A stretch of 12,676 nt of DNA from Candidatus Hydrogenedentota bacterium (GCA_034408725.1 JAWXCN010000225.1:1-12676), one strand, 5' to 3'. Shown: positions 6,824 through 11,536, numbered from the stretch's first letter. Numbers and translations: made by a program. The notes: generated from the sequence alone by a model not told the origin.

Positions 6824-6897
6824 GGAGGGCGGGTTTTCTAACCCGCGATTGATTTGTTTTGTTCAGAAATGGCGGGTTAGAAAACCCGCCCTCCTAC
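6824..6897. repeat. GTAG-type REP doublet (REPIN-like) between convergent genes
   Basis: Perfect 23-bp inverted repeat at 6824-6846 and 6872-6894. Each arm is itself a hairpin (GCGGGTT-N4-AACCCGC). The right arm reads GTAGGAGGGCGGGTTTTCTAACCCGCC on the minus strand. Confidence 0.8.
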
Positions 6898-7897: not shown

Positions 7898-8152
7898 TTA
7901 AAACTTGTCGTACCGTTCGTGCGTCCCGATCCAGAGCCAAATAAAGGATTCTCCATCGCGAAACTTGCCGATCGCCCGATAGTGCGCGCCGATCCGAACA
8001 GACCAGAGATCATCATGAATCGGTTTGAACCGCAACGATGGATGTCGGGGATTGGCCTGCCACAGGTGGAAGTTTTTATCGGCAAGCGCTCGTATTTCCG
8101 ATGGCAGCGATTTGTAAAACTCCCAGAATCGTGCGCTGGCGAGACTTTTCAC
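7898..8152 (-). CDS. RelE/ParE-like type II toxin
   Basis: 84 aa with FW..Y..LP..IR..ADKNF.LW..NP.HPSLRFK..WSVRIG..YRA.G...WLWIGTHE.YD, a pattern typical of ParE-like toxins. GTGA overlap with the upstream acidic ORF. Confidence 0.85.
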   Translation of the reverse strand: MKSLASARFWEFYKSLPSEIRALADKNFHLWQANPRHPSLRFKPIHDDLWSVRIGAHYRAIGKFRDGESFIWLWIGTHERYDKF

Positions 8153-8349
8153 GGAAACGGACGTAACTTACCGCTGTCAAAGACTTCGTCGGCTTCCCGT
8201 GCCAGATCGGCGAACCTCCCAGCGCGCGCGTCCTCCTGCATCTCGCGGTCCCATTCGTCGTTTGGCCAATTCTGGAGCCAAGCGTTCAACTCGCACCGTT
8301 CCCGTTCGGATAGCGCTTCGATGGCTATTTTAATTTCTTTGAGGCTCAT
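8149..8349 (-). CDS. Putative antitoxin cognate to the ParE-like toxin
   Basis: 66-aa ORF (EI..AIE.LS..E..EL.AW...WDREM.ED..AGR...LA.EA) translationally coupled to the toxin. The start is supported by the paralogous copy starting at the same Met (9044). Confidence 0.8.
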   Translation of the reverse strand: MSLKEIKIAIEALSERERCELNAWLQNWPNDEWDREMQEDARAGRFADLAREADEVFDSGKLRPFP

Positions 8350-8356
8350 ATTCTGA

Positions 8357-8384
8357 ATCCTATCGCTGCACTGCGTTACAGCAA
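8357..8384 (-). promoter_or_regulatory. Possible TA promoter with an overlapping inverted repeat; would give a near-leaderless transcript
   Basis: Minus strand reads TTGCTG-16 nt-TAGGAT, 7 nt before the antitoxin ATG. An imperfect IR (GCTGTA-N6-TGCAGC, 8365-8382) overlaps it. Confidence 0.35.
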
Positions 8385-8398
8385 CCCCGGCAGGGGAG

Positions 8399-8644
8399 TC
8401 AAAGCGCGGTCTGCGTCTCGTCACGCCGCACCTCTAAAGTTGAGACATATACTTCAGACCGTTGGCGGTTTACTATTTCGCTTTCGGACGCGGTTTCGAG
8501 AAAAAGTTCCATTGCTTCAGCGAGCATTTGCCGAGCCTCTTCGACGGTACCGCCTTGGCTGGCAATATCGTACTCGGGACATAGCGCGACATAACCATCG
8601 TCTTCGCGCTCGATTATTACTGTGAGCCGTTGCAACGCCGACAT
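8399..8644 (-). CDS. hicB: HicB-family (UPF0150-like) antitoxin, orphan
   Basis: Motif LTVIIEREDDGYVALCPEYDIASQGGTVEEARQMLAEAMELFLE. GAGAGGA RBS. No hicA in the window. Confidence 0.85.
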   Translation of the reverse strand: MSALQRLTVIIEREDDGYVALCPEYDIASQGGTVEEARQMLAEAMELFLETASESEIVNRQRSEVYVSTLEVRRDETQTAL

Positions 8645-8707
8645 TGGGAATCCTCTCGATTTGTGCCGTAGCGATTTTGAAGTGTTGGCTTTGCATATTC
8701 AACAAAC

Positions 8708-8739
8708 AAAAAAGGCGGACCCCATGGCGCAGGTCCGCC
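8708..8739 (-). terminator. Rho-independent terminator, copy B
   Basis: Stem GGCGGACC (8714-8721) / GGTCCGCC (8732-8739), 10-nt loop, and an A-run on the plus strand that gives a U-tract on the minus strand. Lies just after the 8760 stop. Confidence 0.8.
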
Positions 8740-8759
8740 CCGACAGGTTGTTCGCTATA

Positions 8760-8910
8760 TCAGCAGGGCAATTCCCAGCCCTTCCTGTATTCCTTGCTCA
8801 CGATTTCCTTCGCGTTACGGACATTCGTGACTTCACCCTTGACATTGTCCCATCGCAGCTTTTTGCCGGACTTCACGACAAGGTTTCCAAACTGCACCAT
8901 TTCCGTGAAC
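8760..8910. repeat. Direct repeat of the Gfo 3' end (copy B of 9848-9998)
   Basis: 151-nt ungapped alignment with 141 identities. All 10 differences are synonymous. Confidence 0.95.
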
Positions 8911-9044
8911 CTTCCCGCGCGCGCGTCCTCTTGCATTTCGCGGTCCCAATGGTCGGTCGGCCATTTCTGGAGCCACGCATTCAGTTCGCAACTCTCCCGC
9001 TCGGATAGCGCTTCAATAGCTAGCTTTATATCGTTCAAGCTCAT
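8760..9044 (-). pseudogene. In-frame chimera of the N-terminal 46 aa of an antitoxin paralog and the C-terminal 49 aa of the Gfo/Idh/MocA oxidoreductase (junction Phe shared)
   Basis: Residues 1-46 match the 8149-8349 antitoxin at 39/46 positions. The last 49 aa (FTEMVQ...GWELPC) are identical to the end of the 9848-11254 protein. Whether it is functional is unknown. Confidence 0.85.
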
Positions 9045-9059
9045 TATTGGCTTTCTTGA

Positions 9060-9656
9060 TTATTTTGGAATATCCACGGATTCCACAAGTCTTAGAATAT
9101 CAGGATTTGGTTCCTGTAGTTCTAGCGGTACATCATCACCGGGACTAATCGACGCGTCGAGCAGATCAAGCTGCTTTCCCTTACATGGTCCATTCTGAAT
9201 TTCGCCGATGACATAGACCACTGACCAACTTATTGAATGCGCCCCATGTCTAATTAGCTTCACTACCCTAAATTTTGTTCCCTTGGCTACAATTCCTTTG
9301 ATATTCGGCCATTTACGAGGCTCCTCATGGTACATTTCAAGTGTTTGGGGCACCGTAAAATGTCCCCCAGGCGGTGTGTATTGTTCCGGCGGCTCAAGGA
9401 AAAGCTGCTTCCTTCTCCAATCACTACCCTCATAAATAAAGCTATCCACCTGCAACTCATAGTCGGCGCCTACTTTATACCCACCCGCGTATGCAGCTTT
9501 CCCCGTTACATCTTCGGTGTATTCCCCGATAAGAAGAGACAGTACAAATCCGTTGGTGACGCATCCAGAGACCAAACCGTAGATGCACACTACAAGTGCT
9601 TTTGTACATATTCTAGCGAGCGTATACTTTGGAATAAATGCACATTTCGTTGACAT
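9060..9656 (-). CDS. Hypothetical AT-rich protein, probable lipoprotein
   Basis: 198-aa ORF with GAAGGA RBS, a hydrophobic stretch and lipobox-like LVSG-C (Cys32). GC is visibly lower: 21/60 at 9601-9660 versus 35/60 at 10681-10740. Confidence 0.7.
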   Translation of the reverse strand: MSTKCAFIPKYTLARICTKALVVCIYGLVSGCVTNGFVLSLLIGEYTEDVTGKAAYAGGYKVGADYELQVDSFIYEGSDWRRKQLFLEPPEQYTPPGGHFTVPQTLEMYHEEPRKWPNIKGIVAKGTKFRVVKLIRHGAHSISWSVVYVIGEIQNGPCKGKQLDLLDASISPGDDVPLELQEPNPDILRLVESVDIPK

Positions 9657-9749
9657 TGGTGTTCCTTCAGTATACTTCTGCTTTCCAATGAATAGCCGTT
9701 CACAAGTTTCGGGTTCACACAGGCTGACCCCGAGCTTCCTCCTTAATTG

Positions 9750-9778
9750 ATTCTAGTGTCCGCTAACAATCGCCGCAA
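9750..9778 (-). promoter_or_regulatory. Putative sigma70 promoter for the cargo gene
   Basis: Minus strand reads TTGCGG (9778-9773), 17 nt, TAGAAT (9755-9750), immediately downstream of terminator A. Confidence 0.5.
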
Positions 9779-9797
9779 TACGAGAGGAAACCATAAG

Positions 9798-9832
9798 AAA
9801 AAAAGGCGGGCCCTACAGCGCCGGCCCGCCTT
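9798..9832 (-). terminator. Rho-independent terminator, copy A
   Basis: Stem AAGGCGGGCC (9803-9812) / GGCCCGCCTT (9823-9832), 10-nt loop, and an A7 run (U-tract on the minus strand) after the Gfo stop. Confidence 0.85.
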
Positions 9833-9847
9833 ATCAAATTGCTTGAC

Positions 9848-9998
9848 TCAGCAGGGCAATTCCCAGCCCTTCCTGTATTCCTTGCTCACGATTTCCTTCG
9901 CGTTCCGGACGTTGGTGACTTCGCCTTTGACGTTGTCCCAGCGCAGTTTTTTGCCGGACTTCACGACGAGGTTGCCAAACTGCACCATTTCCGTGAAC
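9848..9998. repeat. Direct repeat of the Gfo 3' end (copy A, within the intact gene)
   Basis: Matches 8760-8910 at an offset of 1088 nt. Confidence 0.95.
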
Positions 9999-11254
9999 GG
10001 TCCCGCGTAGTCGAAATTCGAGCAAGCGACACCGTTGCCCTTGCATGCTTGCAGGAAGTTGGCGAAGTGGTCTTCGCCCGGAATGCGCGGAATCGAAGGC
10101 GTAGGCTTCGTGTAGCTCGCCATCTTTTCGTCCGGCACAAGACGCGGGTTGCCGCCGTATTCACCCTGCGTGACGATGCCGCTCTCTCCTATGAGGAACG
10201 ATCCATTCATGTTGTTGTCGCCGAGCACGCACGTATCGGGAATACCGGCAGGCCGCTTCGGACGATTGTAGATTTTCTCACCCGGATTCTTCGGGTCCGG
10301 CCAATGTCCGTCGTACCAGTACACATCCACTTCCGGCATGCCGCCGCCTTCCGCGAAGTGATACTTGATGGTCGAGGTCAGTGGGAAGGTCTGCTTGTTG
10401 ACGCCTTCCTGCATGACCACTTCGACGGTGAACCAGGGGCGTTCGTTGAGTTTCAGGCACATATACACCGGGTCCATGATGTGACAAGCCATATCACCGA
10501 GCGAACCGGCGCCGAAATCCTGCCATGCGCGCCAATCGTGCGGGGCGTAGGCCTTATTGAACGGTCGCCACGGCGCCGGGCCGAGCCAGCGATCCCAGTC
10601 CAGACCATCCGGGGGTGTTTGCGGCTCGAAGGGTTCCGCGCGGCCCTGATTCTTCCACACGGGGCGGTGCGTCCAGACGTGGGCTTCCTGCACGTCGCCA
10701 ATTGCGTTGCCCCAGATCATTTCGCAAAGTTCACGGCACCCGTTGTCCGAGTGGCCCTGATTTCCCATTTGCGTGGCCACGCCCATTTCGCGCGCGGTCA
10801 GTGTGAGCAGGCGCGCTTCTGCCACGGTGTGCGTAAGAGGCTTCTGCACGTAGACGTGCTTGCCCATTTTCATGGCCATGTACGCAGCCGGGGCGTGCAT
10901 GTGATCCGGTGTCGACACGTTGACGGCGTCGATTTCCGGGTGTTTTTCGAGCATGTTACGAAAGTCTTTGTATTTCGCCACATTTGGGTTCAATCCGAAC
11001 ACCTGCGCGGCACGGTCCCAGTCGACGTCGCACAATGCGACGACATTCTCGCCCAGGTTCTGAAAACCGGTGATGTCCCCCGCGCCTTTCCCGCCGGCGC
11101 CAATTGCGGCTACGTTCAGTTTTTCGTTCGGAGAAACTTTCCGCGGAACAACTTTCGCCGAATTCGGCGCGGCCGCCGCTCCGGTGAACGTCATCACCGC
11201 CGTAGTGGTCGTCGCCGCGAGAAACGCGCGGCGGCTCAACGACATCTCACTCAT
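9848..11254 (-). CDS. Gfo/Idh/MocA family oxidoreductase with Tat signal
   Basis: SRRAFLA twin-arginine motif, plus IGAGGKG, VALCDVD, STPDHMH, GKHVYVQKPL, TQMGNQG, WLGPAP and GSLGDMACH. Confidence 0.95.
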   Translation of the reverse strand: MSEMSLSRRAFLAATTTTAVMTFTGAAAAPNSAKVVPRKVSPNEKLNVAAIGAGGKGAGDITGFQNLGENVVALCDVDWDRAAQVFGLNPNVAKYKDFRNMLEKHPEIDAVNVSTPDHMHAPAAYMAMKMGKHVYVQKPLTHTVAEARLLTLTAREMGVATQMGNQGHSDNGCRELCEMIWGNAIGDVQEAHVWTHRPVWKNQGRAEPFEPQTPPDGLDWDRWLGPAPWRPFNKAYAPHDWRAWQDFGAGSLGDMACHIMDPVYMCLKLNERPWFTVEVVMQEGVNKQTFPLTSTIKYHFAEGGGMPEVDVYWYDGHWPDPKNPGEKIYNRPKRPAGIPDTCVLGDNNMNGSFLIGESGIVTQGEYGGNPRLVPDEKMASYTKPTPSIPRIPGEDHFANFLQACKGNGVACSNFDYAGPFTEMVQFGNLVVKSGKKLRWDNVKGEVTNVRNAKEIVSKEYRKGWELPC

Positions 11255-11397: not shown

Positions 11398-11536
11398 TTT
11401 GGACCGCGGTGGCGAAGCGGGTAGCGTAGACACCGCTTTGGCTGTTTAGGGGAGAGGGCGTCGTGCGCACAGGTAGGGGGTAGACCAACTGGGATAAACA
11501 GCCAAAGCGGCGCCTTTGGGGCCGCCGCAGTCCAAA
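11398..11536. repeat. Inverted REP-like doublet (TTTGGA.YGCGG...CCGCTTTGG type)
   Basis: Left arm is TTTGGACCGCGGTGGC..N..CACCGCTTTGGCTGTTTA. The right arm's reverse complement is TTTGGACTGCGGCGGC..N..CGCCGCTTTGGCTGTTTA. A perfect 16-bp IR lies at 11433-11448 and 11495-11510. Confidence 0.75.

Follow-up and report, generated by a model that had tools for sequence, protein, structure and literature searches.

We analyzed a 12,676-nt contig from a Candidatus Hydrogenedentota bacterium (GCA_034408725.1, JAWXCN010000225.1:1-12676; hereafter "the window"), which carries a minus-strand locus running from a gene for a Gfo/Idh/MocA-family oxidoreductase (Gfo) to qor, a gene for a quinone oxidoreductase. 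We read the structure of this locus as the scar of a one-off, recombinase-free recombination event, in which about 1.09 kb of DNA from a related lineage was spliced in behind Gfo, and we assign this reading a probability of roughly 0.6. The scar calls for no dedicated system and no new mechanism: the instance is new, and the kind of event is already known.

The minus strand reads, in order, Gfo, terminator A, a lipoprotein-like gene, a chimeric open reading frame (ORF), terminator B, a hicB-like gene, an antitoxin gene, a ParE-like toxin gene and qor (Table 1), with every element where the first-pass annotation of this DNA had placed it. The same annotation had described three anchors that occur twice in the same order as diverged copies, and these correspond to three direct repeats, D1 to D3, of the Gfo tail, the antitoxin N-terminus and the terminator. 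No other direct-repeat family of at least 25 nt was found in the window (3/3), so these repeats are not chance. Homology between the two modules ends right after the T-run of each terminator and resumes at the antitoxin ATG; the spacers in between are unrelated, with 454 of 500 and 496 of 500 shuffles scoring equal or better, in agreement with the proposal that the cargo between terminator and antitoxin differs. Nor did a Pfam scan of the 13 window proteins contradict the claim that integrases and transposases are missing: none carries an integrase, transposase or recombinase domain (0/13). The 1,088-bp unit holds only the lipoprotein-like ORF and the chimeric ORF, and no gene for a tyrosine or serine recombinase. 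Overall, this absence and the synonymous patterns described below uphold the idea that two modules of separate history were stacked without a recombinase.

The Gfo tail is present once as the 3′ end of the intact gene (copy A) and once as a displaced fragment (copy B). Over the 49 codons they share, the two copies differ by 10 synonymous and no non-synonymous changes, and thus encode an identical peptide (P = 1.4e-7, given a neutral expectation of 21% synonymous changes, or about four non-synonymous per synonymous change). Similarly, codons 1-46 of the two antitoxin copies differ by 17 synonymous and 9 non-synonymous changes, with a ratio of non-synonymous to synonymous divergence (dN/dS) of 0.06 (P = 3.7e-7), and the truncated antitoxin (antitoxin′) matches the full-length protein at 39 of 46 residues. 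These patterns show that the copies of both segments diverged under purifying selection, each inside a working gene; because the divergence is poor in non-synonymous changes in the Gfo tail as well as in the antitoxin, the copies come from two lineages and did not decay in place. The two tails are moreover each other's nearest relatives, with 93.3% nucleotide identity compared to at most 86.7% to any of 15 orthologues, which suggests that the source was a sister lineage. The GC content at third codon positions (GC3) was considered as a means of telling the donor tail from the resident one, and was rejected since the tails offer too few sites.

Differences between the tails are unevenly spread: none of the 18 codons inside a terminal 57-nt identical block differs, compared with 10 of the 31 codons upstream (Fisher p = 0.008). 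Orthologues show no extra nucleotide constraint over this stretch (pooled codon identity 0.569 versus 0.577), so general constraint does not explain the identity. The block exceeds the identity threshold of about 30 bp reported for RecA-type exchange (PMC2884548) and is therefore long enough to serve as its substrate. We conclude that the 57-nt block is the likely site of homologous exchange.

The other end of the inserted segment lies inside the chimeric ORF, where antitoxin codon 46 is joined to Gfo codon 421 at GTTC, a tetranucleotide common to both parents. This 4-nt microhomology falls within the 3-10 bp range reported for joints formed by homology-facilitated illegitimate recombination (HFIR; PMC3240628, PMC6382021). 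Around it, the motif CGCGGGAnnGTTC agrees with Gfo at 11 of 13 positions, since both proteins happen to have Ala-Gly-x-Phe at this point. The crossover within GTTC agrees with the junction previously placed at 8910/8911, and, with the repeat spacing of 1088, it confirms the accompanying claim of a microhomology join that added about 1088 bp and left Gfo intact. Both Gfo and the downstream module look complete. As a separate observation, a 10-mer located at the joint (minus-strand sequence TTCACGGAAA) has an inverted counterpart at the antitoxin stop/toxin start, giving two inverted matches (I2 and I3; 8133-8160 versus 8897-8924 and 9985-10006). We set these matches aside, as their 10-nt core is near chance expectation for a sequence of this length.

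We propose a model with two joins, the illegitimate one that is evident in the sequence at GTTC and a homologous exchange in the 3′ end of Gfo, whose occurrence, position and topology we infer. One version of the locus, in a related lineage, would have run from Gfo through terminator A and the lipoprotein-like gene into the antitoxin gene and onward. The other version, beside which the ~1.09 kb would have been added, would have comprised Gfo, terminator B, the hicB-like gene, the antitoxin gene, the ParE-like toxin gene and qor; the resident and incoming roles of the two modules may be reversed. By a first route, a fragment would have been circularized at the microhomology, and one RecA-type crossover within the 57-nt block would then have integrated it, leaving the tail duplicated around the insert. 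By a second route, HFIR, a linear donor would have been anchored by homology further up Gfo and joined illegitimately inside the resident Gfo tail. In either case no integrase would be needed, Gfo would stay whole, and its former or spare tail would end up downstream, in frame behind half an antitoxin.

We slightly favor the first route because of the 57-nt identical block. In outline the locus reads H-insert-H, where H stands for the Gfo tail; this is the signature of a circular fragment that entered by one homologous crossover. The upstream part of Gfo could serve as an HFIR-type anchor. The first-pass annotation had named HFIR as one route; it is workable, but a single crossover of a circularized fragment fits at least as well, given the flanking duplication and the 57-nt block.

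Table 1. Features of the Gfo-qor locus (positions in the window).
Feature	Position	Strand	Remarks
Gfo/Idh/MocA oxidoreductase, intact, 468 aa	9848-11254	minus	Pfam PF01408 + PF19051; twin-arginine signal
Gfo tail, copy A	9848-9998	minus	final 49 codons and stop codon of intact Gfo; homology begins with GTTC at 9995-9998
Terminator A	9796-9832	minus	10-bp stem, 10-nt loop, U7; fold -23.4 kcal/mol; D3 repeat
Cargo A, lipoprotein-like ORF, 198 aa	9060-9656	minus	signal peptide ending VSGC (lipobox read from sequence)
Chimeric ORF, 94 codons	8760-9044	minus	antitoxin codons 1-46, continued in frame by the final 48 codons of Gfo
Truncated antitoxin (antitoxin′)	8907-9044	minus	first 46 codons; 5′ part of the chimeric ORF; D2 at 80%
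Illegitimate joint	8907-8910	minus	GTTC common to antitoxin and Gfo parents
Gfo tail, copy B, displaced	8760-8906	minus	48 codons + stop, in frame behind antitoxin′; D1 at 93%
57-nt identical block	8760-8816 = 9848-9904	minus	last 57 nt of the tails, to the stop codon
Terminator B	8706-8741	minus	11-bp stem, 8-nt loop, U-tract; fold -27.2 kcal/mol, z-score -3.2
Cargo B, HicB/UPF0150-like, 81 aa	8399-8644	minus	sub-threshold Pfam matches and fold likeness
Antitoxin, full-length, 66 aa	8149-8349	minus	stop overlaps toxin start; 444 family representatives
ParE-like toxin, 84 aa	7898-8152	minus	PF24732, 31.1 bits (cut-off 24.4)
qor, quinone oxidoreductase, 324 aa	6894-7868	minus	Pfam ADH_zinc_N + ADH_N; downstream flank of the locus
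D1, direct repeat (Gfo tail)	8760-8919 + 9848-10007		160 nt, 93% identity, spacing 1088
D2, direct repeat (antitoxin N-terminus)	8202-8349 + 8897-9044		148 nt, 80% identity, spacing 695
D3, direct repeat (terminator)	8708-8739 + 9799-9830		32 nt, 81% identity

Both routes have precedents. In an E. coli conjugation assay, 56 of 60 clones were reported to carry a 109-950 bp duplication of the homologous segment, produced by a single crossover of the re-circularized donor, and true HFIR accounted for only 4 of 60 (Amarir-Bouhram et al, 2011, PMC3240628). The Campbell-type integration described in that report resembles the locus in that the insert lies between direct duplications (109-950 bp in the assay, ~150 nt here) and in that the circle would be closed by an illegitimate event, so that a site-specific recombinase is unneeded. 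The assay concerns laboratory plasmids, whereas the locus is a scar that arose naturally in the chromosome of an uncultivated bacterium; its duplicated segment is homeologous (93% identity) and its circle putative. HFIR has been reported in Acinetobacter, S. pneumoniae and P. stutzeri (PMC6382021, PMC3240628), and the accounts given there share with the locus a joint of 3-10 bp on one side and the addition of ~1 kb of foreign DNA, with a homologous anchor on the other side that Gfo could provide.

The architecture also recalls rhs and type VI secretion system (T6SS) loci as described in the literature, where behind the intact gene lie a detached copy of its own 3′ part and the old downstream genes, again with no integrase; here, the displaced 48-codon Gfo tail lies 1088 nt downstream of the tail of the intact gene. 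The same two candidate routes appear in those accounts: a circle plus crossover has been proposed for the displacement of rhs tips (Jackson et al, 2009, PMC2935791), and HFIR has been invoked for Vibrio T6SS effector-immunity arrays (Kirchberger et al, 2017, PMC5361080). As reported, these systems have variable toxin tips with immunity genes, and their arrays recur across strains; the Gfo locus, in contrast, has identical tail peptides, an oxidoreductase as the anchor and one event. Finally, hotspots of recombination-driven gene flux between core genes have been described that lack mobile-element genes (Oliveira et al, 2017, PMC5635113). Like these, the locus places small accessory genes, among them a toxin-antitoxin (TA) pair and an orphan gene, between metabolic genes, has no recombinase, and would exchange DNA through flanking homology (PMC5635113, PMC2884548); hotspot status, however, needs many genomes of one species.

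That bacteria can take in foreign DNA through a single homologous flank is established by laboratory work; clean natural footprints of such additions are uncommon, especially outside model organisms. If read correctly, this scar keeps the diagnostic marks of such an addition: microhomology at the joint, selection signatures of separate origin, and a likely crossover block. It thereby provides a worked example of how additive integration can be told from in-place duplication or an assembly chimera by sequence alone, and would show that 3′-end displacement, an architecture known from rhs and T6SS loci, also occurs at an ordinary metabolic gene of a candidate phylum.

Several observations weigh against this reading. 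No loss of recipient DNA is visible and part of the anchor gene is duplicated, whereas in classical HFIR, as reported, a stretch of recipient DNA about the size of the insert is usually deleted (PMC3240628); the circle of the first route is hypothetical. Synonymous divergence (dS) is unequal in the two shared segments, at 1.42 for the antitoxin pair (8149-8349 and 8907-9044) versus 0.43 for the Gfo tails (8760-8909 and 9848-9997; Fisher p = 0.035, with ~27-30 synonymous sites in each), and the donor was therefore not simply an allele of the whole locus. Judging from these divergences, the TA copies may be older than, or independent of, the Gfo alleles. The earlier description of the modules as two lineages' versions of one locus thus stands as to separate lineages, given the purifying selection, but not as to plain alleles. 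No full-length close relative of antitoxin′ was found among the best 150 of 444 family representatives: its nearest relative is the window's own antitoxin (39/46 residues), followed by protein P0029 (35/46). Likewise, a search with the chimeric ORF returned 19 hits among 20 candidates, two of which are antitoxins and none of which is the parental antitoxin of module A. We compared the locus with at least 77 related loci, mostly from Hydrogenedentota metagenome-assembled genomes (MAGs), by tblastn with the 13 window proteins. The closest genomes have 74% amino-acid identity among the matches listed, and an un-stacked parental locus was not seen among the 77 related loci listed. Lastly, the four contigs on which the chimeric protein is recorded are possibly not independent samples.

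Among the 77 related loci listed, none has qor, the TA pair, the hicB-like gene or the lipoprotein-like gene beside Gfo, and an orphan Gfo tail likewise occurs in none of these loci, which together contain over 80 Gfo-family genes. A qor match occurs only in L021 (32% identity), upstream of Gfo on the opposite strand, and an AKR match only in L038 (25%). The ORFs downstream of the 15 closest orthologues listed, compared as ORF lists, follow no common pattern. Strain-level relatives exist as proteins: P0002, P0003 (HRK33143.1, encoded on a 77.6-kb contig) and P0005 are at least 90% identical to Gfo.

Among the alternatives to a one-off integration, we regard as unlikely a two-step history within a single genome, in which an unequal illegitimate exchange at GTTC duplicated the Gfo tail, terminator, cargo and antitoxin′ in tandem and homologous replacement of one copy by a diverged relative with other cargo came later. 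Such a history yields the same joint and the same repeat layout, and transformation-triggered tandem duplication has been documented in S. pneumoniae (PMC3784515). It requires, however, two rare events, and a 46-codon antitoxin fragment of only 80% identity would have to act as one flank of the replacement. Moreover, a 57-nt identical block with an unrelated spacer on its 3′ side is not predicted by this history.

Quite unlikely, in our estimate, is an assembly artefact, either a chimera of two co-occurring strains or a mis-threading of the 57-nt repeat, such that the true arrangement would be a chromosome lacking the insert, accompanied by a separate small circle or by a second locus. The contig evidently stems from metagenome assembly, and all relatives found are MAGs. 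The one real ambiguity concerns the threading of the 57-nt exact repeat, which is unresolved at k ≤ 55: at such k, identical k-mers would arise from an uninserted chromosome accompanied by a free circle of 1,088 bp. In Logan assemblies the lipoprotein, the HicB-like protein and the antitoxin are present, whereas the chimeric protein and the exact Gfo protein are missing, a pattern that fits contigs breaking at the 57-nt repeat and decides nothing. On the other hand, the joint shares just four exact nucleotides with its parents, and a graph assembler would presumably need reads containing the joint to cross it. The exact 94-aa chimeric protein is recorded on four contigs from two sources, and a 28,741-nt contig carries the same protein set as the window, so at least two assemblies thread the 57-nt repeat alike. 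Strain switching at the repeat, furthermore, would swap terminators and not make a tandem.

Cargo can also be stacked behind a fixed point by dedicated machinery, as in integron arrays and in integrase-borne islands inserted at the 3′ ends of genes, where a direct repeat of the gene end results. A recurrent system of this kind, dedicated to cassettes, with the 3′ end of Gfo and its 57-nt core as a docking site served by a recombinase in trans or by host RecA, is improbable here. The insert is flanked by direct repeats whose exact 57-nt core reaches the stop codon, and RecA exchange between the two blocks would be expected to excise a 1,088-bp circle and restore a plain locus; the block could serve as an att core, and equally as a substrate for homologous exchange. 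Unlike integrons, however, the locus has no IntI or other integrase, with no recombinase among the 13 window proteins, and the unit holds a broken gene. With half an antitoxin gene and 93 nt of selected Gfo coding sequence upstream of the core, the unit looks like torn-out chromosome and not like a dedicated element. The repeated hairpins, since they follow stop codons and end in U-tracts, are intrinsic terminators and not attC sites. An orphan tail is absent from the related loci listed. A single insertion event is visible at the locus, and the cassette site proposed by the first-pass annotation, in the sense of a slot used repeatedly, is unsupported.

Repeated use of the site would be suggested by short proteins that hold a Gfo tail, 5 of 17 of which (P0017, P0019, P0032, P0023 and P0018) have N-termini that do not look like Gfo. 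Two of them, P0017 (57 aa, encoded on an 855,784-nt contig) and P0019, pair the tail with a non-Gfo N-terminus and switch to Gfo at about the boundary residue of the window's chimera, which speaks for a cassette; their N-termini are too short to classify, which speaks against it. P0023 begins with what we take to be a ParB-like GHHR stretch. Judged from their sequences, these proteins may represent further displaced tails, or frameshifted or over-called genes. A further candidate orphan tail, P0009, was rejected; its sequence is that of the end of the L016 orthologue, and it probably represents a fragment from the edge of a contig. If the loci of P0017 and P0019 resemble the window locus, the Gfo-tail site may be used repeatedly.

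One version of this idea, which we consider a long shot, is that the 1,088-bp unit is a homology-addressed cassette, with the last ~50 Gfo codons as its address, that loops out and re-enters via the 57-nt block. If true, cargo would move between relatives by host recombination, without a recombinase of its own, and the Gfo-tail ORFs of P0017 and P0019 would be footprints of repeated use. In addition, the chimera could act as a partial anti-addiction factor, as it would keep 19 of the 31 antitoxin residues predicted to contact the toxin. Last, an old tandem duplication in place, with the copies then drifting, has the three anchors in the same order to recommend it and is virtually untenable, being contradicted by the 10 synonymous and 0 non-synonymous differences in the tail and by cargo genes that encode different proteins.

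In the one-off integration reading, the intact antitoxin belongs to a probable TA module. The GTG start of the toxin overlaps the antitoxin stop by 4 nt, with the antitoxin directly upstream. At E ≤ 1e-3, the toxin family comprises 192 of 193 candidates and the antitoxin family comprises 444 representatives. No Pfam model matched the window's antitoxin, and 3 of 54 family members scanned gave one unrelated weak match each. We predicted the structure of the antitoxin-toxin complex, which scored 0.80 compared to 0.00 for the best control; runs agree in at least 95% of contacts, and partner pLDDT is at least 87. Of 80 solved complexes, 58 attain the mark used for this score, as do 2 of 110 mismatched pairs; since our own alignments were used, these counts apply approximately. 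No solved relative was found by sequence. The prediction supports binding of the ParE-like toxin by the antitoxin, and the two probably form a working type II TA module. The predicted interface involves 31 antitoxin residues, 19 of which lie within the first 46 that the chimera keeps.

Relatives of the antitoxin show several other rearrangements. P0029, which is encoded on another contig, matches the full antitoxin at 38 of 46 residues and is thus about as near to it as antitoxin′ (39/46). P0154 (97 aa) consists of a complete antitoxin running into the last ~10 residues of a ParE-like toxin, and from its sequence resembles a TA pair in which a deletion within the toxin has removed most of it. 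In several further relatives the protein stops short near residues 47-55. In P0159 (123 aa), a full antitoxin homologue follows in frame on the C-terminus of what a weak adh_short_C2 match (E = 0.0014) marks as a short-chain dehydrogenase, a fusion of gene tail and antitoxin in the order opposite to that of the window chimera. Of 17 truncated or extended antitoxin relatives fetched, none carries a Gfo tail. A fusion of HicB to the antitoxin, which would have placed hicB within the TA operon, was sought and discarded, as no HicB domain occurs in 15 N-terminally extended antitoxin relatives; the nine extensions that we read resemble over-called ORFs.

The anchor gene had been labeled a housekeeping gene, which is an overstatement: Gfo is a twin-arginine-signal member of a multi-paralog sugar-oxidoreductase family. 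It scores 408.5 bits against the NCBIfam model BT_2158_fam, under the cut-off of 750, and is kin to glycoside 3-dehydrogenases; its relatives in Hydrogenedentota MAGs are 65-74% identical among the matches listed. Tandem Gfo-family paralogues are found in several related loci, with four in a row in L023 (5137-11356) and two each in L017, L019, L036, L043, L049 and L062. These arrays indicate that the anchor gene belongs to an expanding accessory family and is not a housekeeping gene. Short tandem repeats lie just 3′ of the Gfo terminators in some relatives, with GTAGGACTT-like units in L003 (~11470-11520) and AATTAAG-like units in L013 (~11480-11520).

The stems of terminators A and B differ by one compensatory pair, from G:C to A:U. 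A simple terminator scan recovered B and missed A, because the 10-nt loop of A is above the limit of the scan. Downstream of terminator A, the lipoprotein-like ORF has no relative other than itself among 86 candidates retrieved by sequence and belongs to no Pfam or NCBIfam family. Its Atlas model (predicted template-modeling score 0.67) resembles clusters of hypothetical proteins with template-modeling (TM) scores of 0.56-0.75. The gene is compositionally foreign, with a GC3 of 0.417 (0.42) compared to 0.67-0.74 in the metabolic genes. Downstream of terminator B, the HicB-like protein has two Pfam matches below threshold (DUF7387, 21.4 bits; UPF0150, 17.2 bits), and its Atlas structure resembles HicB/UPF0150 clusters with TM scores of 0.73-0.89. 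No HicA-like ORF is present in the window, and only 63 nt separate terminator B from the start of the hicB-like gene. At the end of the locus, the qor product scores 261 bits against TIGR02824, under the cut-off of 296.8.

In the window, tRNA and Rfam searches gave no match, and a promoter scan returned 0 sites. The only nuclease-like gene in the window encodes a YhcG/DUF1016 PDDEXK nuclease (1497-2654, E = 7e-51) and lies 6 kb from the scar; its end overlaps the start of the next gene, of the GNAT family, by 28 nt. Between qor and a convergent hydrolase gene is a 27-nt inverted repeat (I1, 6824-6894; 17-nt spacer, 96% complementarity) that is likely a bidirectional terminator.

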